From a virus (taxonomy: Duplodnaviria; Heunggongvirae; Uroviricota; Caudoviricetes): 64,000 nucleotides of DNA. Positions within the stretch are counted from its first letter, which is position 1; each line of letters begins with the position of its first letter. The stretch lies in IMG/VR virus record IMGVR_UViG_2703718819_000006; one strand, written 5' to 3'. This document shows positions 2,328-60,721 of the stretch, piece after piece. The position numbers were made by a program, and so were the translations under genes. The notes under the pieces were generated by a model that made no database searches, was not told the DNA's origin, and was given only the letters and a program-made list of their open reading frames with translations.

Positions 2328-2446
2328 TCTTAACTCCGTTGTTTTCTAGTTGTGGTTATTTTCACAAATAAGAAAAGGCAGAAAACAATTTATTTAAGGC
2401 CACAACTTATGGCCTTTATTTATTCACGCAGAAGGATTTGTAGCGT

Positions 2447-6905: not shown

Positions 6906-7202
6906 GTGTTTTTCCTAATGCTTAAACAAGTTGTTTTCTTATTGGCTTTATTGTGATGTGGCATAAAAGGGGAGCAAGCTAAACGTAAAGGTGCAAACTC
7001 TCTATTTCGGTCAACGAAACACAAGGGCCATTTGGCCCTTGTCATTAACACGTTGCTTTACGGACTAGCGGATAAGCGAAGTAGATCGCCAGACCAATGA
7101 GGACGCCATCAGAAATGACAGACATCATCTTTCCCGTAAAATCCACCAACACCGCCATCACCAGAAGAGCAATGACGGTCACAAGCCGGAATCTCTCAAG
7201 CA

Positions 7203-7628: not shown

Positions 7629-7721
7629 GTGCTTTCCTTTTGTTATTTGTTAAAACAAGTTGTTTTCTAGTTACATGAATTGCTTACGAAAAGACGGTCA
7701 ATGCATATGCACTAACAACCG

Positions 7722-16698: not shown

Positions 16699-17841
16699 TT
16701 ACAGGTCTGCAAACTGGCTTAGAGAAGCCTTATCCACGGTAGAATCGATCTGACCTACCAGATATGTGCTTTGCTCTGCCTCTTGTGGTGCAATTTGCAG
16801 TGTGTCGGTTAACAACCACTTGTTCATCCAGACCAGCGGATCAGTGGTAACTTCTGGAAATAAAGCCTTCAGGCCAAGACGATTCATAGCCAGATTGGTG
16901 CGGTATTTTACATAGGTTTTGAGAATATCCGCGTTTAAACCAATCATCGAACCGTCTTTGAAGAGATAGTCGGCCCAGTTCATTTCTTGTTCGGCGACTG
17001 ATTTCATGGTGTCGTAAATGACGTTTTCTTCATCAGCAGCAATCTCTTTCCACAATAAACCTTCGCGACCGGTACGCATGAAGCGGATCATGCGTTCAGT
17101 TCCTTCGCAATGCAGAGCTTCATCACGGGCAATAAAGCGCATAATTTTGGTGTTACCCTCAAGCAACTTCCGTTCACCAAAGGCAAACGTACATGCAAAA
17201 CTTACGTAGAAACGGATCGCCTCAAGCGCATTAATGGACACCAACGTGCGGAAAAGCTGACGATGCAAAGGGTATGGCTCCCAGCCATATTCATTTACGT
17301 ACAGACGCTCAAATTCCTTCTCACCTAACGACTGGCGCTCGCAGGTCATCCCATAAAGCCTGTCATATTCAGCAGAGATACTGATCGCTCGGTTGATGAT
17401 TTCTTCATCCGTAACAATACCGTCAAAAACAATACTCGGATCGTCCACCATGCCACGAATAATGTGGGTGTAGCTGCGGCTATGGATAGTCTCAGAGAAA
17501 GACCACGTTTCAACCCACGTTTCCAGTTCAGGAATAGAGATAAGCGGCAGCAGCGTTGCATTTGGACTACGTCCCTGAACTGAATCGAGTAACGTTTGAT
17601 AACGGAGATTGCTCAGAAAAATGTGACGTTCGTGGTCCCGCAGCTTCGTGTTGAAGTCGATACGATCGCTCGAAATATCAACTTCTTCCGGCCGCCAGAA
17701 GAAAGACAATTGACGTTCAATCAACTTTTCAAAATCACGGTATTTTTGCTGATCGTAACGTGCCACGTTGACAGATTGTCCGAGGAACATAGGCTCTTTG
17801 GTTGCATCATTAGCACCCAAACGGAACGTTGAATATGACAT
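16699..17841 (-). CDS. nrdB: ribonucleotide reductase class Ia beta subunit
   Basis: Near-collinear with enterobacterial NrdB ([42 protein letters not shown]). Confidence 0.95.
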
Positions 17842-17947
17842 GTGTTTTTCCTTTTTCTTTTTTGGTGCGTTTAAACAAGTTGTTATCTTATGTGTTTAAA
17901 CAAGGCTTACAAATCAAAGAGAAGGTGGGGATATCCCCCACCATATG

Positions 17948-20263
17948 TCAGATTTTGCAGGCTCCGTCGCACTCATCTTCTGGCTCGACGGCTACAGCTT
18001 GCGTCAGTGGATTCTGCGGTTCGTCGTCATCACGCTTTCCTGCCCCATCTCTGGTGTTGTGGTAGTAAAGCGTTTTAACTCCCATCTTGTAGGCGAGAAG
18101 CAAATCTGACAGTAGCGTCATCATTGGGACTTTATCGCCTTCAAAGCGAGAAGGGTCATAGTTGGTATTGGCTGAAATAGCCTGGTCAAAGAACTTCTGG
18201 ATGATCGCCACCTTTGTCAGATAGCCGCGGTTGTCCGGCATATCCCACAGGTATTCATACTGTTCCTTCAGTTTTTCAAACTCAGGCACGACCATCTTGA
18301 CGATGCCGTCCTTAGAAGATTTCACTGACACCGGGCCACGAGGCGGTTCGATGCCGTTGGTGGAATTAGTGATCTGGCTGGAAGTCTCGCATGGCATTTG
18401 TGCCGTCAGTGTGGAGTTGCGAAGGCCGTATTTTGCAATACGTTCACGCAGTTCTTCCCACGGCATCTTTAACTCAAAGTTGGTTTCGCCACTTTCGTCT
18501 AATGAAGAACGGTAATGGTCGATCGGCAACTGACCAATTGCGTATTTGGTCTGCTCAAACCAGTCACACTCACCTTTTGCTTCAGCAAGTCGGCAGCTGG
18601 CATCAAGAAGGTAATACTGGATAGCTTCGAACGTTTCATGCACCAGTTTATTGCCAGCGGTATCAGAATAACGAACGCCATTCTTTGCCAGGTAATAAGC
18701 AAAGTTGGTTACACCAATTCCCAAGCTACGACGAGCTTTGGCAGGCACTTCGGCTGCCTCCATCGGATAGTCTTGATAATCCAGTAACGAATCCAGTGCA
18801 GCAACGGCATAGAACGCCACCTCTTTAAGAGACTCCAGTGAACGGATGGCTCCGAGGTTAAAAGCGGATAAAGTGCATAGCGCGATCTCACCGTTCGGGT
18901 CGTCGGTAAATGCCAGTGGACGGGTGGGTAGGGTGATCTCCATACACAGGTTTGACTGGCGAACAGGTGCAAGAGCAGGAATGAAAGCGCCATGCTCATT
19001 AATATGATCGACGTTCGCAATATAAATTCGGCCCGTGGACGCTCGTTCCTGCATCAGAGATGAGAACAGCTCAATGGCAGGTACTGACTTCTTGCGAATT
19101 GAATCATCGGCTTCGTATTTATGGTACAGCTTTTCAAACAGCTCCTGGTCTGTGAAGAAGGCTTCGTACATATCAGGCACATCATGCGGGCTGAACAGAG
19201 TGATGTTCTCGCTTCTGACGAGTCGACGGTACATTAGACGGTTACTCATGACGCCGTAATCAAGATGGCGAACGCGGTTTTCATCAATACCACGGTTATT
19301 TTTCACCACCAGCAGACTTTCAACTTCAAGATGCCAGATCGGGTAAAACGCTGTTGCTGCGCCACCACGAACACCACCTTGCGAACAAGATTTAACAGCC
19401 GTCTGGAAATGCTTCAGGAATGGAATAACTCCAGTATGGGTGGCTTCACCATTGCGGATCTCGCTGCCCAGCGCACGGATACGGCCAAAACCAATACCAA
19501 TTCCAGCACGACGTGAAACGTAGTCGATAATTGCGGCTGAAGCTGCACTAATCCCTTTCAGACTATCGCCAGACTCAATCAGCACACAACTGGAGAACTG
19601 ACGGGTTGGAGTACGGACGCCGGCCATGATTGGTGTGGGCAGAGACAGTTTGAACGTACTTGTAACGTCATAGAAACCTTTGACCATCTCCATACGTGTT
19701 TTGCCAGCGCAGTCGTCTTCCCAATTCTGGAACAGACACATGCCTACCAGCATATAGATATGTTGCGGTCCCTCATGAATCTCACCAGTAACACGGTTTT
19801 GAACGAGGTATTTGCTTTGCAACTGCACCGTAGCTGCATAGCCAAAAAGATCGTCACGTTTCGGCTTAATGTAATTGCCGAGTTCTTCGATCTCTTCAAA
19901 CGAATAATGTGTCAGCAAATCCTTGTCATAAACGCCCTTGTTAACGTTCTTGACAATGTGTTGGTAGAAGTTCGGATAGTCGTAACGACCGAAGGCATCT
20001 TTGCGGATTTTAAAAATGTTCAGGCGGGCAGCCACCTGTGAGTAATTTGGTGCTTCTGGTGAGATCAAATCAGCGGCAGATTTAACCAAAGCCTCATGCA
20101 ACTGGCTGGTGGTCATCCCATCAAAAATGCTGGCCGCAGCTCCCATTGCTACAGCGGATGCGCTTACACCACGAATGCCTTCTACGCCATACATTACGAC
20201 GCGGTTGTATTTTTCTTCGGATAACGGCTCTGTTTGGCCGTTACGTTTTACGATGCTTATCAT
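17948..20263 (-). CDS. nrdA: ribonucleotide reductase class Ia alpha subunit
   Basis: Near-collinear with enterobacterial NrdA (YLVQNRVTGEI, SCVLIE, CSQGGVRGGAAT, NLCMEI, C-terminal CxxC tail). Confidence 0.95.
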   Translation of the reverse strand: MISIVKRNGQTEPLSEEKYNRVVMYGVEGIRGVSASAVAMGAAASIFDGMTTSQLHEALVKSAADLISPEAPNYSQVAARLNIFKIRKDAFGRYDYPNFYQHIVKNVNKGVYDKDLLTHYSFEEIEELGNYIKPKRDDLFGYAATVQLQSKYLVQNRVTGEIHEGPQHIYMLVGMCLFQNWEDDCAGKTRMEMVKGFYDVTSTFKLSLPTPIMAGVRTPTRQFSSCVLIESGDSLKGISAASAAIIDYVSRRAGIGIGFGRIRALGSEIRNGEATHTGVIPFLKHFQTAVKSCSQGGVRGGAATAFYPIWHLEVESLLVVKNNRGIDENRVRHLDYGVMSNRLMYRRLVRSENITLFSPHDVPDMYEAFFTDQELFEKLYHKYEADDSIRKKSVPAIELFSSLMQERASTGRIYIANVDHINEHGAFIPALAPVRQSNLCMEITLPTRPLAFTDDPNGEIALCTLSAFNLGAIRSLESLKEVAFYAVAALDSLLDYQDYPMEAAEVPAKARRSLGIGVTNFAYYLAKNGVRYSDTAGNKLVHETFEAIQYYLLDASCRLAEAKGECDWFEQTKYAIGQLPIDHYRSSLDESGETNFELKMPWEELRERIAKYGLRNSTLTAQMPCETSSQITNSTNGIEPPRGPVSVKSSKDGIVKMVVPEFEKLKEQYEYLWDMPDNRGYLTKVAIIQKFFDQAISANTNYDPSRFEGDKVPMMTLLSDLLLAYKMGVKTLYYHNTRDGAGKRDDDEPQNPLTQAVAVEPEDECDGACKI

Positions 20264-23794: not shown

Positions 23795-24880
23795 TCACAC
23801 AGCCTCCGAACTCTCCGCTTCGGTGAGGATTTCCTGACACAAAATATCCAACTTGCTTAGATCAAATCCGCCGTCAGTATCGTGGACAATCTTGCAATAA
23901 GCAGATACCGACTCTCCCAGGCTATCGATTTTGCTGGTTTCCGTTGTGCTTGCTGTCCCTTCCATCATTGATGACTTACGGATGAAGTTGCACACGACAC
24001 CTTTTGCACCCATTGTTTTGAGGATGTTCTGGTACTTAATGCCTTCTTCATCGTTCTCAATTACGGCGCGGAAACGCACGTAGTTGCCGCGAATTTGGTC
24101 ATCGGCAACATAATCTTCCAGGTTAATGAATTTAGGCGCACTGGTTTCGTAGTGACTGAAACTGCCGTCCGGGTTTACGATCATGTAACCAGCCAGAGAT
24201 CCAACATCTCCCCAATTTTGATGGGTCAGCGCACCGACACTGATAACTCCAGGAATGACCTCTTTGTGGTTGTGGTAATGCCCACTAAGCACGAGACGAA
24301 AGCCGATATCCTTTAACTCCTGCGCATCGATACCGACGTCAGGCATTGTTGGAATGGCTTTGTTAATGGATGTATGGATAACAACGTCATGATTATCACC
24401 TTCTACGCTCTTACGTAATGCTTTCAGATCGCTGATAAGCTCCGCATGATTGTTACGCCAGCTAATCAGGTGGACAGTCACATCACCAATTTTTATTGAG
24501 TGTGGGCGTTTGCCACATACGATTACCACGCCGATAGAACTCAGCGATGCTGCTGCGTTGGCGCTATATACTGAATCGTTGGTTTCAAGATCGTGATTAC
24601 CGGCCAGCATTACTACTGTCAGATCAAGCTCGTTGATAATCCACTTGTACGTTTCAGTTACGTAATGCAAAACAGAAGGGGACACAGTTCCTCGGACGTG
24701 AAATGTATCACCGGCAATCAGCATGTACTTACAACCGGCCTTCTTCATGGCGATGGCTGCTTCTTTCGTTGCTTCCAACTGTATTTCAAGTCTGGAGTTA
24801 AGCCCCTCAGCGTTCGTCGTGGAGAACGCATCCCATTTGTGGTAGTGGCAGTCAGAAATGACGCCGTATGGCAAAGTCAT
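23795..24880 (-). CDS. sbcD: SbcD/Mre11-like nuclease (calcineurin-like phosphoesterase)
   Basis: Metallophosphatase motifs DxH, GDxxH, GNHD, GHxH. Confidence 0.8.
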   Translation of the reverse strand: MTLPYGVISDCHYHKWDAFSTTNAEGLNSRLEIQLEATKEAAIAMKKAGCKYMLIAGDTFHVRGTVSPSVLHYVTETYKWIINELDLTVVMLAGNHDLETNDSVYSANAAASLSSIGVVIVCGKRPHSIKIGDVTVHLISWRNNHAELISDLKALRKSVEGDNHDVVIHTSINKAIPTMPDVGIDAQELKDIGFRLVLSGHYHNHKEVIPGVISVGALTHQNWGDVGSLAGYMIVNPDGSFSHYETSAPKFINLEDYVADDQIRGNYVRFRAVIENDEEGIKYQNILKTMGAKGVVCNFIRKSSMMEGTASTTETSKIDSLGESVSAYCKIVHDTDGGFDLSKLDILCQEILTEAESSEAV

Positions 24881-25134
24881 GTGTTTTTCCTTTGTGGTTA
24901 TTTTGATACAAATTTTAAGAGCAATGAGAAGGTAAACAACTATGCATAACGGTATGTTAGGAATGAAACGAGCGCATTAATATACAAAATTTATAAGTAA
25001 GTATATACCTATTTGTTGTGACGCAACTTTGCTTGTCTGTATGACTAAAAATAAGACAGGATCACTGTAGAACGCTATGAGAGCTATTTTGAGGGGGCGT
25101 AGATTCTATCTACGCCAATATACGATCTGGAGGG

Positions 25135-29586: not shown

Positions 29587-29647
29587 GTTTACTTCTCCTT
29601 ATAAATAGGAAAATAATCACCTTTGAAAAAATAAAGCAAAGATATAT

Positions 29648-30037
29648 TCACTCCGATACAAGACGTTTATATGCTTCGATGTCTCGACGTGCTTCACCGA
29701 GTTTTCTTCTTAGGTCCATATTTTCTGATTCAAGTTTTTCAATGTTTTTTTGGTATCGGCCACGATGTTCTTCCCAGGCATCCTGATATGCCTTCATATA
29801 TGTCGTATTAGCCTTTCTTTTTGCCTGACGAACCGCGTGGTGATTTTCTACAAACCAGTCAGGGTCGTTAAATGCTGCTCTTGCGCATTTATACCAATAA
29901 TCGGTTGACTCTCTGTTTAACCAATGAATGGTGATAAATGGTAATCGAATAGACAGAATTTTTCGTTTGGAATCTCGCTCACCAAACATATGCCCTTTTT
30001 TTATCTTTAAACCGAACCCAGGTTGAATTAAAAGCAT
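29648..30037 (-). CDS. hypothetical protein (AT-rich island)
   Basis: ORF track; GAGG RBS. Confidence 0.45.
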   Translation of the reverse strand: MLLIQPGFGLKIKKGHMFGERDSKRKILSIRLPFITIHWLNRESTDYWYKCARAAFNDPDWFVENHHAVRQAKRKANTTYMKAYQDAWEEHRGRYQKNIEKLESENMDLRRKLGEARRDIEAYKRLVSE

Positions 30038-30057
30038 TGTCAGTACCTCAGATGCAT

Positions 30058-30798
30058 TTATGGCAGTAATTCTTTACCGCTTTCCATTTTGGTGATAGAG
30101 ACAGTAGGATCATCGTTAATGCATGATTCTGTGCCTAATGCTGCTAACCCTTTACGCATAACCGTGCCCGCAACATACGCCTCAATCTCCGCCTTTCCAG
30201 ATGAGACAATTTCATCCATTTGTTCCTGCATTAATTCGGTAGCAAAGCACAGATTTTCAGGAAGGTTAGCTACAGCAGATGCTAGTTTTCTATATAGTTC
30301 TTCAAGGTCACGTTTTCCAGCTCTTCCTTTTTTCACAAGTTCACCTAGCTCTGAAACTTGCTGATTAAGTCGATCAATCTCACTATTCGTAGCGGCCTTT
30401 ATTTGATCGTTGAATTTTTGCCGAATACTTTTTTGCTCGGCAATATCATGAACTCTAATTGAGTCTCCAATGGTTTTATATGAAATAGTGCATGGCACAC
30501 CTTCGCCCACTCCAAAACTGCTAACCATAGCAGCCCATTGTGCCTGGCTAAGTCTAATTTCAACTAAAGGCCGTCTATTGCAACTTCTTTGTGGGCGGGT
30601 TCGTTCATTGTCTAAGGACAGTTCCGCCTCGTAAACGCCTATTTCAATATAGTCTCTATGTTCCAGTTCTGAATCAAATAGGCGAATGCCAGTTGTGCTA
30701 ACACGGCTTGTTTTCACAAGACCGAACGCTGGATGTGTTTGAATTTTTTCCCCATGTTTATTAAGGGTCGTTTTTGGTTCTTCAATTTTTCTTTTCAC
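30058..30798 (-). CDS. hypothetical protein (AT-rich island), GTG start
   Basis: ORF track. Confidence 0.45.
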   Translation of the reverse strand: MKRKIEEPKTTLNKHGEKIQTHPAFGLVKTSRVSTTGIRLFDSELEHRDYIEIGVYEAELSLDNERTRPQRSCNRRPLVEIRLSQAQWAAMVSSFGVGEGVPCTISYKTIGDSIRVHDIAEQKSIRQKFNDQIKAATNSEIDRLNQQVSELGELVKKGRAGKRDLEELYRKLASAVANLPENLCFATELMQEQMDEIVSSGKAEIEAYVAGTVMRKGLAALGTESCINDDPTVSITKMESGKELLP

Positions 30799-30844
30799 CT
30801 TATTAACCTCTATGCTTCATGCGTAAAGCTAAATGACAATTTTT

Positions 30845-31669
30845 TTAATATCCGGCGTATTCGTATTCTTCATTTAGACCGTATTCTTGTGGAGTGATAC
30901 CAGGACAACATAACTCAAAGGCGAACTTGCGCCATTTGATTTTTTCTTCTGACGATTGTTTGTTATTCGCCGGTGCAATGTAGTCATATTCCCATTTGCC
31001 GTTGCGAAGTAAAATGAATCCGCAGTTATTGCCGAAGTCTTCGTCTGCATAACGTATTACAAACTCAAGGTGCGGGAACTTTCTAGCCATCGCTTGATAA
31101 ATTGGTTTTGGCATAGACCAGGCTGTTTCAAAGCGAATCACCAACTCACCACCAGTTGCGGCATGTCTTGCAAGACGTTTTTTATAGATTCGTTTTGCAT
31201 ATGCTCGAACGTGTGTATGGCGGAAATTATGGCCGTACTTAATACGTGTAGGGATACGTTTTACGGGCATTTCGATGTTGTAGGCATTCCATTTTGTTCC
31301 CCAATTAGCTCGCGACCAGTCAAACCATGAGTAATAGCCATAGCGACGATAATTCTCAAGCCGCATAAGAGCCTGCTCTTTGATTTTGCGAATTTCCTTG
31401 CGTGTCATTCCTGATTCACGCATAGCTAATTCGATCTGTTCTGGAGTCTTTAATTCACCGAACATGTGGTCGTAAACTGTTTCGCCCGCCATTGCAGAGG
31501 CCATGCGCCTGATATGATTGTTTTCTTCCATTTCTATACTTTTCGGACGTCTGCAAATGGTATTAAAGTCAATTAGACCTTTTTTGTTAGTTATGGCACG
31601 TATGAAATCTAAGCGTTGTTTATTTGTACCACCTATGACTCGGATTTCGTTTGTAATGTGGTTGGGCAT
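30845..31669 (-). CDS. hypothetical protein with conserved WFDWSRANWGTKWN motif (AT-rich island)
   Basis: ORF track. Confidence 0.5.
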   Translation of the reverse strand: MPNHITNEIRVIGGTNKQRLDFIRAITNKKGLIDFNTICRRPKSIEMEENNHIRRMASAMAGETVYDHMFGELKTPEQIELAMRESGMTRKEIRKIKEQALMRLENYRRYGYYSWFDWSRANWGTKWNAYNIEMPVKRIPTRIKYGHNFRHTHVRAYAKRIYKKRLARHAATGGELVIRFETAWSMPKPIYQAMARKFPHLEFVIRYADEDFGNNCGFILLRNGKWEYDYIAPANNKQSSEEKIKWRKFAFELCCPGITPQEYGLNEEYEYAGY

Positions 31670-31728
31670 AATTAACTTAACCTTTTAACAAATTGTTTTC
31701 TTGTGTGTGATAATAACGAGAATAAAAC

Positions 31729-31746
31729 GGCGTCCAACTGGACGCC
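31729..31746 (-). terminator. rho-independent terminator
   Basis: ggcgtcc aact ggacgcc hairpin followed by U-rich tract on minus strand. Confidence 0.6.
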
Positions 31747-31764
31747 TGATCTTCTTAATGAGAG

Positions 31765-32595
31765 TTATTTCACTGTAATGAAAGGAGTGTTAGCCCCTTG
31801 AGTCATGTACTGCGGTAACTGGCCATTCCATTTATTGATGGCTTCCAGCTCCATAACGTTCGGGTTTTGACGCAGAGCTTCACCGCGCAGACGAATGGCG
31901 TCGGCTTCTGCTTGCGCACGAGCACGGATAGCATCAGCTTCACCATTAGCCTGTTCACGTAGCATATTCGCCTCAGCTTTACGCTGTTCAACTTCCTGCT
32001 GACGTTGCAGAGTACGCTGGTTAGCCGTTACTTTGGCGTTGATAGATTCAATGACGGTTTTTGGGTAATCAGGCTTTCCAACCCATGACAGGCTCAGTAC
32101 CTCAATACCAACCGGAGACATCTCTTTCTGAATATCTTTCAGTGCGTTGTCCAGCAATTGCGCCTTACCACCGTCGATAAATGAGTCAGTGGTCATACGG
32201 CTGGCCAAACGGTTTAGAGAGTCGGCAATTTTCTGACGCAGATCTGATTCGGTGATATCGTCTACGCCTTTGCGATAGGTCTGGAACACCGTCGTTACCT
32301 TGTCACGATTAACCAGATACGCAACGCCAATTTTGTGACCAATAGCAGTACCGTCACTCATCTGGAATGTGAACGGCTCGTCGTAGGTCTTCATTTGTTT
32401 GAAGGTCGGGAATACGTAAAGTTCGGTGTTAAGACCTGTCCATTGGCGACCAACGCCAACCACTTCACCGATCCCTTTGTCTTCACCTAATTTGTTTACT
32501 TTGATGCCAACGTATCCAGGCTCCACGCGATCACAGCCAGTAAGACCCATTGTGCAAATAGCCGCCAGAGCAACTGCAAGTAAACCTTTCTTCAT
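31765..32595 (-). CDS. SPFH/band-7 domain lipoprotein
   Basis: Lipobox LTGC after signal peptide; SPFH-like core and Ala/Glu-rich coiled-coil C-terminus. Confidence 0.65.
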   Translation of the reverse strand: MKKGLLAVALAAICTMGLTGCDRVEPGYVGIKVNKLGEDKGIGEVVGVGRQWTGLNTELYVFPTFKQMKTYDEPFTFQMSDGTAIGHKIGVAYLVNRDKVTTVFQTYRKGVDDITESDLRQKIADSLNRLASRMTTDSFIDGGKAQLLDNALKDIQKEMSPVGIEVLSLSWVGKPDYPKTVIESINAKVTANQRTLQRQQEVEQRKAEANMLREQANGEADAIRARAQAEADAIRLRGEALRQNPNVMELEAINKWNGQLPQYMTQGANTPFITVK

Positions 32596-32598
32596 TAC

Positions 32599-32799
32599 TT
32601 ATTTCCCCTTTGCTTTGATTAATGAGTTGATAAACTTACGACCAGCAATAAGACCGATTACAGGAGCACCAAAACCAACGATAACTCCAAACATGACGGC
32701 TAAATCACTCTTGGTAGAAATCAGCGACGGAACCAGTAATCCGTAGATGAGAGCCACTGAAAGGCCTGTGGCTACTGCCAATAGATAGATTTTGATCAT
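32599..32799 (-). CDS. small membrane protein (2 TM), upstream partner of SPFH protein
   Basis: ORF track; hydrophobic. Confidence 0.45.
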   Translation of the reverse strand: MIKIYLLAVATGLSVALIYGLLVPSLISTKSDLAVMFGVIVGFGAPVIGLIAGRKFINSLIKAKGK

Positions 32800-43142: not shown

Positions 43143-43237
43143 GCGTTTTTCCTTTGTTTTCTAATGAGCGTTCAACTTCTTATATAAATATATCATTAAC
43201 TATCGTAAGTGGTTACTTATCATTAAGGCTGTTTTAT

Positions 43238-45346: not shown

Positions 45347-45444
45347 GGCTAATCCTTTGTTATGAAAACAAATTATTTACTAGTGTGTTTAATGTAGCAC
45401 TGCGCGAACAGGGAACTAAGCCATTCGCGCAGGGAGAAGAGGGG

Positions 45445-50341: not shown

Positions 50342-50417
50342 TGGTGCCGGTTAACGGACTTGAACCGCTGGCCATTCGCTTACAAAGCGACTGCTCTACC
50401 AACTGAGCTAAACCGGC
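50342..50417 (-). tRNA. tRNA-Thr (anticodon TGT)
   Basis: Hand-folded: acceptor GCCGGTT/AACCGGC, D-arm GCTCAGTTGGTAGAGC, anticodon loop TTTGTAA, encoded CCA. Confidence 0.7.
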
Positions 50418-50421
50418 AATT

Positions 50422-50508
50422 TGGTGGGGAGTGATGGAGTCGAACCACCCGAGTCGCAATGACGGTAGATTTACAGTCTACACCGCTACCTCTACGGACT
50501 AACTCCCC
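50422..50508 (-). tRNA. tRNA-Tyr (anticodon GTA), type II
   Basis: Anticodon arm GTAGA-CTGTAAA-TCTAC, T-loop GGTTCGACTCC, acceptor GGGGAGT/ACTCCCC, encoded CCA. Confidence 0.75.
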
Positions 50509-50513
50509 TAAAT

Positions 50514-50588
50514 TGGCGATGGTGGGTGGATTCGAACCACCGACCAGTTGGTTAACAGCCAACTGCTCTACCGCTGAGCTACACCATC
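50514..50588 (-). tRNA. tRNA-Asn (anticodon GTT)
   Basis: Anticodon arm GTTGG-CTGTTAA-CCAAC, T-loop GGTTCGAATCC, acceptor GATGGTG/CACCATC. Confidence 0.75.
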
Positions 50589-51655: not shown

Positions 51656-51804
51656 TTTTTCACCTTTGTTTCATGAACTACCCGATACACACGCTTTCCA
51701 ATGCACAGTGTTTTGGTTTTAAGTTCCTGCTTAATTAAATCACGACAGATGCCGAAGCCGATAAGGAAGCCACCCATAAAAGCTAATGAGATGTATGGAA
51801 TCAT
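51652..51804 (-). CDS. small hydrophobic protein (50 aa); its start codon lies in the repeated ATGATTCCATAC motif
   Basis: ATGA overlaps with both neighbours. Confidence 0.3.
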   Translation of the reverse strand: MIPYISLAFMGGFLIGFGICRDLIKQELKTKTLCIGKRVYRVVHETKVKK

Positions 51805-52016
51805 TTTAACGCTCCTGATTCTACTAATTGCTGTAGCAATACTTTCCCTTTATCAGTTAACTGGTAGTTGGCCGAACACCACGTTTCAGAAACGTTTGCA
51901 ACCAACCCTAAACGCTCTAACTTAGCTCGCGTTTTAGGCTTCCAGTACTCAGGGAACTCCGGCCACTTACTGATTTCATGAAGCGTTTCCTTCTCCCGTT
52001 TACTTAATACGATCAT
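51801..52016 (-). CDS. hypothetical protein
   Basis: ORF track. Confidence 0.45.
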   Translation of the reverse strand: MIVLSKREKETLHEISKWPEFPEYWKPKTRAKLERLGLVANVSETWCSANYQLTDKGKVLLQQLVESGALK

Positions 52017-53498: not shown

Positions 53499-53977
53499 TG
53501 TTGTTTTGCCTCCATATGTTGATCGATTTGCTCATGTGTTTTTTTTGTTGTTTCTTCAAGCAACGCCGCATACACGTCAGTGATCGCTGTTTGTGATGTG
53601 GCGCTCTTCTTAACCATGCTATTAATCGTTACACTGTCACGTTTTCGTTTTAAAGTTCTGGCTTGTTTATTCCGTTCTTCAACCTCCTTAATGAGCGCGG
53701 TCATATCTTCGAAATACAGAGATTCTCCTTTACGAATCTCTTCAACCATCATTTTTAACGCCTTGCATTTGCCTGCTTTGATAGCGGTTGCGCACGACTG
53801 GAATGAAGTTCGAGGAAGACGGTTTTCTTTGAAGGCAAGAATGGTGTGCTGGCAAACGGAGTAGCTGCAATATGCCGACTCACCGTTTATCTTTACTTCC
53901 TCACAACGAAGTGAATAACCATTATTTCCTGAAATAGAGGGGATTTTTGACAAATCAGCTTTCACAACTACCGCCAT
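53495..53977 (-). CDS. hypothetical protein
   Basis: ORF track. Confidence 0.5.
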   Translation of the reverse strand: MAVVVKADLSKIPSISGNNGYSLRCEEVKINGESAYCSYSVCQHTILAFKENRLPRTSFQSCATAIKAGKCKALKMMVEEIRKGESLYFEDMTALIKEVEERNKQARTLKRKRDSVTINSMVKKSATSQTAITDVYAALLEETTKKTHEQIDQHMEAKQQ

Positions 53978-54886: not shown

Positions 54887-56065
54887 TCATAGAGCCTTAA
54901 TGCCCAAAACCTTGCTTTGTAACTCCAACTGCTTGGTATACGGTTTTGCCCGATAATAGGCTTTGATGATTTGCTCTGGCGTTGCATCGCCCGGGTCGAG
55001 TCCTTCCTCGCCCAAACACGCCACTTTGACATTAAGACCAATACTGGTCAGTCGCCTGGCTGCGGCCATCGTGTTGCGTATAGCTTGCTTTTCACTATCC
55101 CACATCATGATCACATTACGTAATCCACGCGCCTTGAGCGTCAGGAACGCGCCTAACTGATCTTCTGCATCCTGAGTGGTGTTACCAGATAGATGCATCC
55201 CGAACGTTCCTATCGGTTCCACGTAATCACGTAATGTTTCTTCATCAAAAATAGCTCGTTTAACCCCCATAACATCGAACGCCCCCTCACAGACAACTAC
55301 AGTCTGTTTGCCGACTGCATTATGGCCGTTGTAGAGAAACTTACCTGAAGCTGGAAGTTGCATAGGAAAGAGGTAGCGGCGTTCTGCTGTACCGGTAATG
55401 TCTCGTCCCTGAAATGTCTTCATTACCCCATCCAGATCGTAAACCGGTATCAGTATTCGCATATCGAATATCTGTCCTTTAACCTGATCTGTATACGGAT
55501 CTACATAAGCGTGCTTGCCTTCGACGCAGTATCGTAGGTCAAAATACTTTGCCATTTCAGGCGATATGTTTCGTTCAACCAGATAGTCTGGAAGACGGCC
55601 ATCTATAGGAAGTTCGTAATGACGAGGGAGTGCAAGTGGTCCCTCTAACTCGACTGTGCTTGCAAGCACTATCTCTTCTTTCTTTGGTGTCCACCCCTGG
55701 GAAAGAAGAGCGTTCTGCACATATTCCTCGAACTGTCGTCGTGATTTACCGCTGTAGTGCTTGAGGAAGACCAGCTTATTGAACTGAATCTCTTCGGGAT
55801 GATCACCAGCGAAGCATTTGCCGACGCCACTGGTCAGATTGAAATATACCTTCCAGTTGGAGCTGCCGCATACCGGACACTCCTTGATATTCACTTCACG
55901 ACCGCGAGCACTCACGCCTCCACGTCGATAAACGATACCTTCAGTGTCCAACCATTGTTCAAAATCTAATTCGGTAATTAGCTCTTTCAGCTCGCTCACG
56001 ATAATTCCACTTTTAACAGGCAATATTGTGACCAACCTAAATGTTGATATAACATAAAGGCTCAT
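54887..56065 (-). CDS. DNA primase (zinc-ribbon plus Toprim)
   Basis: CPVCGSSNW..GKCFAGDH zinc-binding region; VVVCEGAFDVMG Toprim; ORF track start 56137 is GTG, ATG at 56065 carries conserved leader. Confidence 0.75.
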   Translation of the reverse strand: MSLYVISTFRLVTILPVKSGIIVSELKELITELDFEQWLDTEGIVYRRGGVSARGREVNIKECPVCGSSNWKVYFNLTSGVGKCFAGDHPEEIQFNKLVFLKHYSGKSRRQFEEYVQNALLSQGWTPKKEEIVLASTVELEGPLALPRHYELPIDGRLPDYLVERNISPEMAKYFDLRYCVEGKHAYVDPYTDQVKGQIFDMRILIPVYDLDGVMKTFQGRDITGTAERRYLFPMQLPASGKFLYNGHNAVGKQTVVVCEGAFDVMGVKRAIFDEETLRDYVEPIGTFGMHLSGNTTQDAEDQLGAFLTLKARGLRNVIMMWDSEKQAIRNTMAAARRLTSIGLNVKVACLGEEGLDPGDATPEQIIKAYYRAKPYTKQLELQSKVLGIKAL

Positions 56066-56146
56066 GTGTTTTTCTTTTGTGGTTTGGCAAAAGAAAAGTT
56101 GTTTCACCAATGAATCAAGCGTGGAGGTGTTCTCCACGCTTATTTT

Positions 56147-57487: not shown

Positions 57488-57530
57488 GTGCTTTCCTTTG
57501 TTTTTTAAACAAATTGTTTTCTAGTATTAG

Positions 57531-58271
57531 TTAATTAGATAGGGGATCAATAAACCGCCGTGCTTCTTCCAGTTCTTCTGGAAAGTGGGCGGAAATAAGG
57601 CGCTCTGGAACGATTTCCATTAGCCAGATAGCGGAGAAAATTGCGCGTATGCGCTTGCTGCGAGGGATGGTGCGCAAACGCTCCAGAATCCACTCAAAAT
57701 AGCTTTCCTGAATCGGGTTGAACTGCATGTCTCCCATATGCTTAAAGCTAACCAGAGAGTCATCCAGACGGGTTGTTGCGCGTCTGGCTAATTTCTCTTC
57801 AAATATCTCAATCAGTTCTGGCTGCCATAAATGCTGTGGGCGCGGCAGCTTGTCCCACAGCCGTCGTGCAGCTGCGGAAAGAACGGTGGAGATAAAGTAG
57901 TCGTATGAGCAGCAATAGCGATCCGCAAACTGGCGTGCTTTCCATAGCGACGTTTTATTGGCAGTCGACAACTCCTGATAAGGCAGGCGTTTTAACCCGG
58001 TGGTGAACGGAGCTGTTTCAAAGTGTTCGCGACCGTGCGTCAGCATGATATTTGAGTACTGACGTTTGTATGCCTCCGTAAAAAGACAGGTGGCCATGAG
58101 AGGATGCATGTCGCGGTAATCAAACCACTTCGTCTCGAAGAGTTCAGCCTCGTCTTTACAGCGCGACAAACCAATGTTTTCAGCGACCCACTTGTCCATA
58201 ACAGCGGTATTCCACTCTGTCATGAAGTCGTACTGGTCGTTGTCGATGGTATCGAAAAAGATTTGGCTCAT
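57531..58271 (-). CDS. hypothetical protein
   Basis: ORF track 57531..58280 begins on GTG; ATG at 58271. Confidence 0.5.
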   Translation of the reverse strand: MSQIFFDTIDNDQYDFMTEWNTAVMDKWVAENIGLSRCKDEAELFETKWFDYRDMHPLMATCLFTEAYKRQYSNIMLTHGREHFETAPFTTGLKRLPYQELSTANKTSLWKARQFADRYCCSYDYFISTVLSAAARRLWDKLPRPQHLWQPELIEIFEEKLARRATTRLDDSLVSFKHMGDMQFNPIQESYFEWILERLRTIPRSKRIRAIFSAIWLMEIVPERLISAHFPEELEEARRFIDPLSN

Positions 58272-59375: not shown

Positions 59376-59735
59376 TTAACCTTTCTTCATCAACTCTCGT
59401 TTGATTTCATCGGTACGCATCGTGACATCGGCAGCGGTGATCGCCTCATTCAATTTCACGATGTCCTCGATTTCCTGCGGTGACTTCTCTGCCAGATGGA
59501 AAATGGCTGCTCGAATCACGTCAGAACGAGTGAACTTCTCGAAGCGAGGGATGAACTTCATCATCTCCAGCAGTTCGAAGTATTCGTCCTCCAGTGACAT
59601 TGTGCGGCTTTTAATTTTCTCTTTGCCACGAGTCGGGCGTCCCTGTGGTCTGACTGGTTGGCGCAAAGGAGTTGTGTTCTTAGCCGGTGCATCAGGCTCT
59701 TTGCGCTTTGCTAGGTCACCCATTTTCATGGACAT
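59376..59735 (-). CDS. partition protein ParB/ParG-like (small centromere-binding protein), putative
   Basis: Small basic protein immediately downstream of parA with TAATG overlap. Confidence 0.5.
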   Translation of the reverse strand: MSMKMGDLAKRKEPDAPAKNTTPLRQPVRPQGRPTRGKEKIKSRTMSLEDEYFELLEMMKFIPRFEKFTRSDVIRAAIFHLAEKSPQEIEDIVKLNEAITAADVTMRTDEIKRELMKKG

Positions 59736-60403: not shown

Positions 60404-60721
60404 TGGAGAGTTCCCTTTGCGTATATAATTATCGTCTGAAACAACTTGTTTTCTTATATGTGATATAGCCTAAATGCCTACGGCTGCGGTGTAAAGGTTA
60501 AATGGTAGGTTGTGATTAACAATTGGCAAACATAGCTTGTATTTGTCTGTTGAAAAAAGTAACAATGACCTCTATATTACAAGTACGGTGATATGCCGTA
60601 CACAATTTGATAATGCACACGTAATGGGCTATAGCCTTTTAAAGTAATTTTTGAGTCGAAAACTCAGTTTGAACAGAGGAGATTGATGGCCTTCCTACAT
60701 CACGGCCATCAGGAGGAATAC

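Follow-up and report, generated by a model that had tools for sequence, protein, structure and literature searches.

The operators of global repressors that act at many sites of one replicon have been described for C1 of phage P1, where they are scattered over the genome, for KorA and KorB of RK2, with KorB operators about 39-40 bp upstream of start sites, and for omega of pSM19035, whose operators are heptads. A protein can also control expression at the level of mRNA, as in Salmonella, where FljA represses translation of the fliC message. In the phage-plasmid N15, four identical inverted repeats dispersed in the genome, IR1-4, are centromere sites of a type Ia SopB system (PMC7205306). Here, we describe a palindrome that, like the operators of P1 C1, RK2 KorA/KorB and omega, is a short motif found at many promoters of one replicon, the promoter of the partition gene included, with a predicted overlap of the polymerase footprint and with half sites that are both inverted and direct. 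It differs from these operators in its unrelated sequence and in its location, which is mostly at +14, just before the Shine-Dalgarno (SD) sequence, in a stereotyped cassette. It would be an ordinary kind of control element, with no sequence membership in the known multi-site operator systems.

The window, that is, the whole stretch of 64,000 nucleotides analysed here, is 99.3-99.8% identical to Escherichia phage Cyrano (OV696614), CMS-2020a and many E. coli plasmids of ~110 kb, and ~76% identical to Salmonella phage SSU5 and Klebsiella phage-plasmids. Based on these identities, we assign it to an E. coli phage-plasmid of the SSU5/pHCM2 type, of which it is a part. Its genes lie mostly on the minus strand, and their names were mapped over from the Cyrano annotation. 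Phage-plasmids of the SSU5/pHCM2/pMT1 type are frequent in clinical Enterobacterales, with core genes of the family in more than 800 PLSDB records, and the family has been reported as a carrier of resistance genes. Next to nothing has been published on gene control in these plasmids; our literature search found no description of the motif or of the operators of the SSU5-type family, and an earlier description may still exist. The motif defines a testable regulon that joins partition, replication and nucleotide metabolism with the packaging operon. In combination with a second operator family, it provides a first map of transcription units, and it is a ready probe for its regulator, which probably helps to set the plasmid-versus-lytic state.

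A palindrome within a copied promoter-leader cassette

The palindrome, AAACAAnTTGTTT, is 13 bases long and lies inside a promoter-plus-leader cassette that is copied before many genes. With at most one mismatch, AAACAANTTGTTT matches the window eight times (starts at 2383, 6924, 7653, 17873, 31686, 45366, 57507 and 60439) compared to 0.38 matches expected, and a count of eight was reached by none of 100 shuffles. The palindrome is found upstream of parA, helicase, cobT, orf31669, nrdB, tciA and hyp87, with left-half copies before cobS and an HD-domain gene. The 9-mer AGAAAACAA occurs 12 times in the window compared to 1.2 expected, 11 times on the gene-sense strand. This enrichment bears out the first-pass annotation, which had placed a near-palindromic element before at least seven transcription units and gave coordinates that all prove to be real sites. 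It had also set the palindrome 15-40 nt from the start codon; measured from palindrome centre to ATG, the distance is 11-42 nt.

From its upstream end, the cassette comprises a weak -35, a TGnGATAAT extended -10, 10-11 nt, AGAAAACAAnTTGTTTAA, an SD and the ATG. Approximately 45 sites aligned with wide flanks give the consensus cTTT(T/G)ACGCCTTTTc ... TGcGATAAT-AACACCAACA-AGAAAACAAnTTGTTTAAgGAG ... ATG. At 22 of 43 sites, the end of a -10-like hexamer whose second base is A and whose sixth is T lies exactly 10-11 nt before AGAAAACAA, and these hexamers are mostly preceded by TGn. Because transcription is assumed to start ~7 nt past the -10 hexamer, the palindrome centre is placed at about +14, with the SD directly after it. 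Most copies are predicted to have a sigma-70-type extended -10 promoter upstream. Features in common with known extended -10 (TGn) sigma-70 promoters are the TGnGATAAT, TATTAT or GAAAAT hexamers, the weak -35 and the fixed distance to the leader, although the promoters described here are predicted ones.

In a second class of sites, TTAAACAAnTTGTTTTCT lies on the sense strand 24-26 nt upstream of the -10, with its centre at about -38, over the -35 region. Where a promoter carries both a +14 and a -38 copy, as several do, the spacing between the two is always 51 bp. Most of the full palindromes in NZ_CP055187 are at -38 and occur with direct repeats of the half site TTGTTTTCT. Across all promoters, each of them predicted from sequence, the operator is centred at about +14, at about -38 or over the -10. 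Half of the sites have no clean -10 with the canonical spacing, the assignment of the -10 is ambiguous at several sites in the window (parA, tciA), and a consensus promoter scan did not flag the operator-bearing promoters.

A recurrent ribosome-binding block, AAAGGAAAAACACATG, has 12 matches with up to three mismatches, all on the coding strand, compared to 1.13 expected. Eleven of these are at gene starts, typically just past an intergenic gap (Ead, hyp87, tciA, nrdB, sbcD, hyp59, SSB, uvsY-like, Pol III alpha, cobS and primase), and the twelfth, at 53533-53548, lies within a gene, upstream of the ligase start. The helicase gene has a variant of the block that is shorter by one base. More than a dozen genes had been credited with an almost invariant start block; about a dozen is right, but the invariance was overstated, as the 20-mer originally given occurs exactly only once, at sbcD, and has five matches within three mismatches. 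We take the CCACAAAGGAAAAACACATG block to be the transcription-start and SD part of the same cassette without the operator, not a separate element, because the -10, discriminator and start region of sbcD (CAAAAT, AACCACA, AAGGAAAAACAC, ATG; 24878-24897, minus strand) match GATAAT-AACACCAACA joined directly to the SD. The operator-less leader is very short and A-rich, and its Shine-Dalgarno sequence, AAGGA, lies at a distance of 8 nt from the start codon ATG; we see no need for the block to do anything beyond efficient initiation.

A position weight matrix (PWM) built from the window sites and applied to Cyrano, SSU5 and Klebsiella phage pJN2-26 at a score cut-off of at least 20 returned 16-17 sites per genome, compared to ~0 in shuffles, and 14-15 of these were gene-sense and just upstream of start codons. 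A search for the motif across related phage-plasmids, which had been suggested as a check, yielded copies at orthologous positions in Cyrano, SSU5 and pJN2-26, at ~76% DNA identity, as well as copies in more distant relatives. The orthologous sites are at terS (two copies), parA, helicase, cobT, nrdB, tciA, hyp87, a DUF4942 gene, the HD-domain gene and, at 93-98.5 kb of Cyrano, a cluster of small units with one gene each. L071-L074 are among the more distant relatives with the motif, as is plasmid NZ_CP055187, the most divergent sequence examined. Part of this conservation may come from the duplication of one cassette instead of selection site by site. A scan of viral contigs with a 17-mer recovered SSU5-like contigs and scattered single matches at roughly chance level. 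The terS leader (Cyrano 40-135) contains two motif copies, a GC-rich hairpin AGAGCGCATGGACGCGCTCT, GTGTGTTTT and then the terS SD, a layout common to SSU5, pJN2-26 and pMT1. Its hairpin looks like a terminator or attenuator in sequence, which hints at control of the late genes by antitermination.

Putative operator copies at nrdB and other promoters

Window positions 17842-17947 are the spacer between the nrdA stop, at 17948, and the nrdB ATG, at 17841, and the features described here are on the minus strand. An intrinsic-terminator-like hairpin with a T-rich tail, GGTGGGGGATATCCCCACC (17924-17942), follows nrdA in all three genomes compared, and nrdB would therefore need a promoter of its own. 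The promoter predicted for nrdB has a -35 of TTGTAA (17907-17912) and, after a 16-nt spacer, a -10 of TAAGAT (17885-17890); it scores 8/12, below the 9/12 threshold of the promoter scan. This -10 overlaps the left half of the full operator copy, AGATAACAACTTGTTTAA (17871-17888), and the predicted start falls at the operator centre. An A-to-T variant of the nrdB operator, AGATAACAA, present in the window, SSU5 and pJN2-26, creates the TAAGAT hexamer, and TTGnnn-16-TAAGAT is found in the window, SSU5 (TTGAGC) and pJN2-26 (TTGAAT). Where the first-pass annotation saw two tandem copies, one is full and the other, CCTTGTTTAAAC (17894-17905), is a right half only, which is only partly conserved in relatives. 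The nrdB SD and leader block with its ATG, AAAGGAAAAACAC + ATG, occupies 17839-17854. When the window, SSU5 and pJN2-26 were compared, the best-conserved block of the spacer was ATAAGATAA(C/T)AAnTTGTTTA; conservation extends to the terminator hairpin of nrdA and to the GGnAAACACATG start region, and the sequence in between has diverged. NrdR boxes are 16-bp pairs specific to nrd promoters. The motif does not appear to be an NrdR box: it differs from the NrdR consensus and is present at at least 15 unrelated promoters, and nrdA has the other operator type.

The parA operator, AGAAAACAAGTTGTTTCA (60437-60454, minus strand), was recovered by the search with at most one mismatch. Its predicted promoter, on the same strand, consists of TTTACA (60490-60495), 17 nt and TAGGCT (60467-60472), and Cyrano, SSU5 and pJN2-26 have a near-identical parA promoter region. 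The operator before the DnaB-like helicase gene (57505-57522, minus strand) is abutted by a predicted -10, AATACT (57523-57528), with a predicted -35, TTGATC, at 57545-57550; a -10-like hexamer 1 nt upstream of the motif is also present in SSU5 (TAGTAT) and pJN2-26 (TACGAT). Two minus-strand sites are additions to those first listed. One is a degenerate cobT operator, AGTAAATAATTTGTTTTC (45364-45381), which has a predicted extended -10, TGCTACATT, at 45391-45399 and orthologues in SSU5, pJN2-26 and pMT1. The other is a left-half-only copy of AGAAAACAA at cobS (43154-43162), fused directly to the cobS SD block.

Three more minus-strand operators precede a 274-aa ORF (operator at 31684-31701, predicted -10 TATTAT at 31710-31715), tciA (7651-7668) and hyp87 (6922-6939), where a -10-like CACAAT (6950-6955) ends 10 nt before the motif. 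The tciA operator has a weak terminator-like hairpin on its upstream side (7697-7716), and another terminator-like hairpin lies near the hyp87 operator (7021-7042). Because such hairpins are upstream of each, we argue that the nrdB, hyp87 and tciA copies belong to independent transcription units. The 274-aa ORF (30845-31669), with its own operator copy, takes the place of several Cyrano genes, for example memb56, that are absent from the window, which is unlike Cyrano at ~29600-32600.

The leader of the HD-domain gene (Eae-like) illustrates both positional classes. The site noted there earlier, at ~2337-2352, is real, with the qualification that only the left half of the palindrome, AGAAAACAA, is present (2339-2347, minus strand), followed directly by an SD, GGAG. 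An extended -10, TGTGAAAAT, lies at 2358-2366 on the same strand, and the left-half site is kept in SSU5, pJN2-26, L071 and L074. Upstream, a full palindrome of the -38 class (2380-2397, plus strand) abuts a hairpin at 2396-2416. The full palindrome and the downstream half site are 51 bp apart, centre to centre, in opposite orientations, and this pair is also found in Cyrano, SSU5 and pJN2-26. The hairpin after the motif copy at 2380-2416 (plus strand) has its better T-tract on the strand opposite the genes and was called a plus-strand terminator by a scan tool, and 7 nt upstream of the unit is a -10-like AATAAG (GATAAG in SSU5 and pJN2-26). Judged by these sequences, 2380-2416 could encode a short antisense RNA of about 45-55 nt; the arrangement of motif, hairpin and -10-like hexamer is conserved in SSU5 and pJN2-26.

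A predicted DNA operator and the competing explanations

We estimate at roughly 55% the probability that AAACAAnTTGTTT, within AGAAAACAAnTTGTTTAA, serves as a DNA operator through which a global repressor encoded by the plasmid controls a family of extended -10 promoters. A profile of the core was obtained from 56 family sequences, which contributed 169 distinct contexts of the +14 class and 120 of the -38 class. In both classes, the two arms of the 13-bp core carry about 1.0-1.9 bits per position and the centre carries 0.04-0.11 bits, so the core has the dyad symmetry, equal arms and free centre of a dimeric-repressor operator. Only the outer flanks differ by class: the +14 class has AGA on its left, and the -38 class has TCT on its right. 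The symmetric core, its free centre and its occurrence at two positions, one of which is outside the transcript of its promoter, are together the signature of a dimer site in duplex DNA. Folding of the leaders gave energies of -0.3 to -2.3 kcal/mol with z-scores that were not significant, no compensatory changes between the palindrome arms were seen among the mismatched sites compared, and an Rfam search had no match at the motif, with only three tRNAs detected. An RNA hairpin, a 5' stabiliser or another structured 5' RNA element was rejected on these results.

If the palindrome is such an operator, a single dimeric regulator encoded by the plasmid would bind it in sigma-70-type promoter/leader cassettes across the SSU5-type phage-plasmids. 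The commonest layout would have the operator centre at about +14 and the second at about -38 over the -35, with both at some promoters, 51 bp apart, and at nrdB and helicase the predicted -10 would overlap or abut the operator. Occupancy of any of these positions by a protein would shut out RNA polymerase or trap it, and regulation by repression is therefore most likely. Repression would tie together at least 15 transcription units, including parA, helicase, cobT/cobS, nrdB, tciA, terS and the small-gene cluster. Three observations count against a purely symmetric dimer site or fit another level of control: the AGA left flank is kept asymmetrically in the +14 class, the left-half-only copies (cobS, HD-domain gene) are conserved across genomes, and many sites abut the SD, as a translational operator would. 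These observations keep an RNA-level role alive. The first-pass annotation had offered an operator overlapping a promoter or a 5'-UTR element bound by a translational regulator; both options still lead, and the evidence favours the operator.

The main rival is an RNA-level mechanism, which we consider unlikely, in which the palindrome is a 5'UTR site for a plasmid FljA-family tandem Sm/Hfq-like RNA binder that represses translation of a whole set of mRNAs. Cyrano (100780-101301, minus strand), SSU5 (SSU5_121) and pJN2-26 (pJN226_0046) all encode, on the same replicon as the motif and outside the window, a full-length member of PF03614 (E = 1e-80) for which a tandem Sm/Hfq-like fold is predicted. 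This protein is of the same Pfam family as Salmonella FljA (~40% identity), and tblastn finds it in 831 PLSDB plasmids, 341 of them from Klebsiella and 62 from Yersinia. Flagella are absent from K. pneumoniae, and Y. pestis lacks motility, which excludes host fliC as the conserved target of the FljA-like protein; there is a small chance that it acts not as a flagellin repressor but as a plasmid-wide post-transcriptional regulator reading AGAAAACAAnUUGUUUAA at the 5' ends of ~15 mRNAs. The copies of the +14 class lie in predicted 5'UTRs, often abutting the SD, with strand-specific conservation of the flank, and the 8-mer CAAGTTGT is common to the fliC leader and the motif. However, the -38-class copies are outside the mRNA of their promoter and the predicted start at nrdB and helicase is within or after the left arm, so a leader site next to the SD is not found at all copies. 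The leaders have no stable hairpin, and the symmetric profile with its free centre is typical of a duplex-DNA dimer site. The fliC 5'UTR scores -4.8 bits on the PWM, compared to 17-31 at real sites, and 0.13 matches of that quality are expected per UTR by chance. In NZ_CP055187, the FljA-like protein is down to 36% identity, and the motif is unchanged. FljA and fliC also differ from the present case in that ~15 mRNAs would be controlled, not one, and in that many copies fall outside the predicted UTR. It is the low score of the fliC leader and the divergence of the protein under an unchanged motif that make this reading the main rival and not the best explanation. If it were true, reverse motif-plus-hairpin units such as window 2380-2416 might be small decoy RNAs.

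Protein-DNA recognition could also serve partition. There is a slim chance that the palindromes are mainly parS/parC-like sites of a dispersed centromere, with promoter effects as a by-product or secondary. The sites are palindromic and dispersed and include the par promoter, where a copy is located identically in all genomes with this parA, and the plasmid encodes a small conserved protein after its type Ib-like ParA as well as two ParB-N proteins. In N15, there are four sites and the system is of type Ia (PMC7205306), whereas here at least 15 sites lie at fixed promoter positions alongside a type Ib-like ParA. Because nearly all of these sites are locked to a fixed distance from the -10 and are gene-oriented, gene control fits better than partition. 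A search for a repeat array beside parA found none. Y. pestis pMT1 lacks the type Ib parA operon yet keeps intact motif copies at terS, cobT and one other promoter, a natural deletion test that carries little weight because the plasmid is too young for decay. We give little credence to the view that there is no dedicated trans-acting factor and that a duplicated, A-rich and unstructured leader is kept for its benefit to promoter escape, to the stability of the mRNA or to ribosome loading, its palindromic look being incidental. The leaders are indeed essentially unstructured, left-half copies fused to the SD are conserved, the cassette occurs with and without the palindrome, and the flanking promoter sequence is also kept between copies. 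Against this, the right arm is as informative as the left with the centre base alone free, and copies of this 13-mer are also found at -38, a second position, and in reverse orientation. Recognition by a conserved enterobacterial DNA-binding protein of the host is likewise quite improbable. Plasmids of Escherichia, Salmonella, Klebsiella and Yersinia all have the motif in unchanged form, with plasmid proteins that diverge to 36-90% identity, but retention of specificity is expected anyway of a regulator with at least 15 sites. To our knowledge, the palindrome matches no host consensus (NrdR, LexA, Fur, FNR, CRP, IHF or Fis).

Several other resemblances were examined and set aside. The upstream part of the cassette recalls a T7/T3-like polymerase promoter (AATTAAC...); no polymerase gene is annotated in Cyrano, SSU5 or pJN2-26, and the asymmetric upstream part is accounted for by the TGnGATAAT sigma-70-type -10. 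A late promoter of the P1 Lpa type was rejected on the grounds that the SD is too close for a palindrome centred at -22. The resemblance of the fliC leader to the motif and its surroundings (shared CAAGTTGT, AATAACA and AAGGA) is striking by eye and failed the PWM significance test. Co-variation between the motif and the FljA-like protein offered nothing to exploit, as the motif is invariant where the protein is 36-57% identical. The FljA-family protein is a core gene of SSU5/pHCM2/pMT1 plasmids, those of non-flagellated Klebsiella included.

Candidate binders and a second operator family

Candidates for the protein that would bind the operator are a small protein encoded after parA, two small winged-helix-like proteins and two ParB-N proteins; profile searches of Pfam, PHROGs and PDB gave no significant match to a DNA-binding domain among them. 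The ParA partner, a candidate DNA-binding protein of 119 aa, is encoded by the second gene of the parA operon (59376-59735, minus strand). It appears ribbon-helix-helix-like by eye and has a conserved core, SRTMSxEDE...FTRSDVIRAAI; it matched nothing in Pfam, PHROGs or PDB profile searches, and its AF2 monomer model was poor (pLDDT 63), too weak for a fold search. The candidate winged-helix binders are a 71-aa protein (51801-52016, minus strand), a putative transcriptional regulator in the Cyrano annotation, and an 88-aa protein adjoining terS, both with only sub-threshold winged-helix matches (E about 0.06 for the 71-aa protein). The 88-aa protein is 76-78% conserved in divergent relatives, and the two ParB-N proteins adjoin it.

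A second operator family, TA(G/A)GTAAnnnnTTAC(C/T)TA, has 16 matches with up to two mismatches compared to 0.5 expected. Its 18-mers (plus coordinates 3575, 8545, 10758, 15597, 20310, 24994, 28793, 32833, 37619, 51336, 54851 and 58285) lie upstream of Ead, dam, thyX, nrdA, sbcD, hyp60, SSB and others. The related sequence GGTAAGCACTTACC is about 30 nt upstream of the start of an HTH_19 repressor-like gene (45909). The promoters marked by the second family, TAGGTAAnnnnTTACCTA, form a set of their own in this genome, which is probably the regulon of the main prophage repressor.

Three tRNA genes lie at 50345-50588 of the window (minus strand), annotated as Asn, Thr and Ser in Cyrano. The primase gene occupies 54887-56137 of the window. 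Its start in the Cyrano annotation is a GTG (55999); translation more likely begins at 56065, where an ATG in the same frame follows the shared leader block, CCACAAAAGAAAAACAC.
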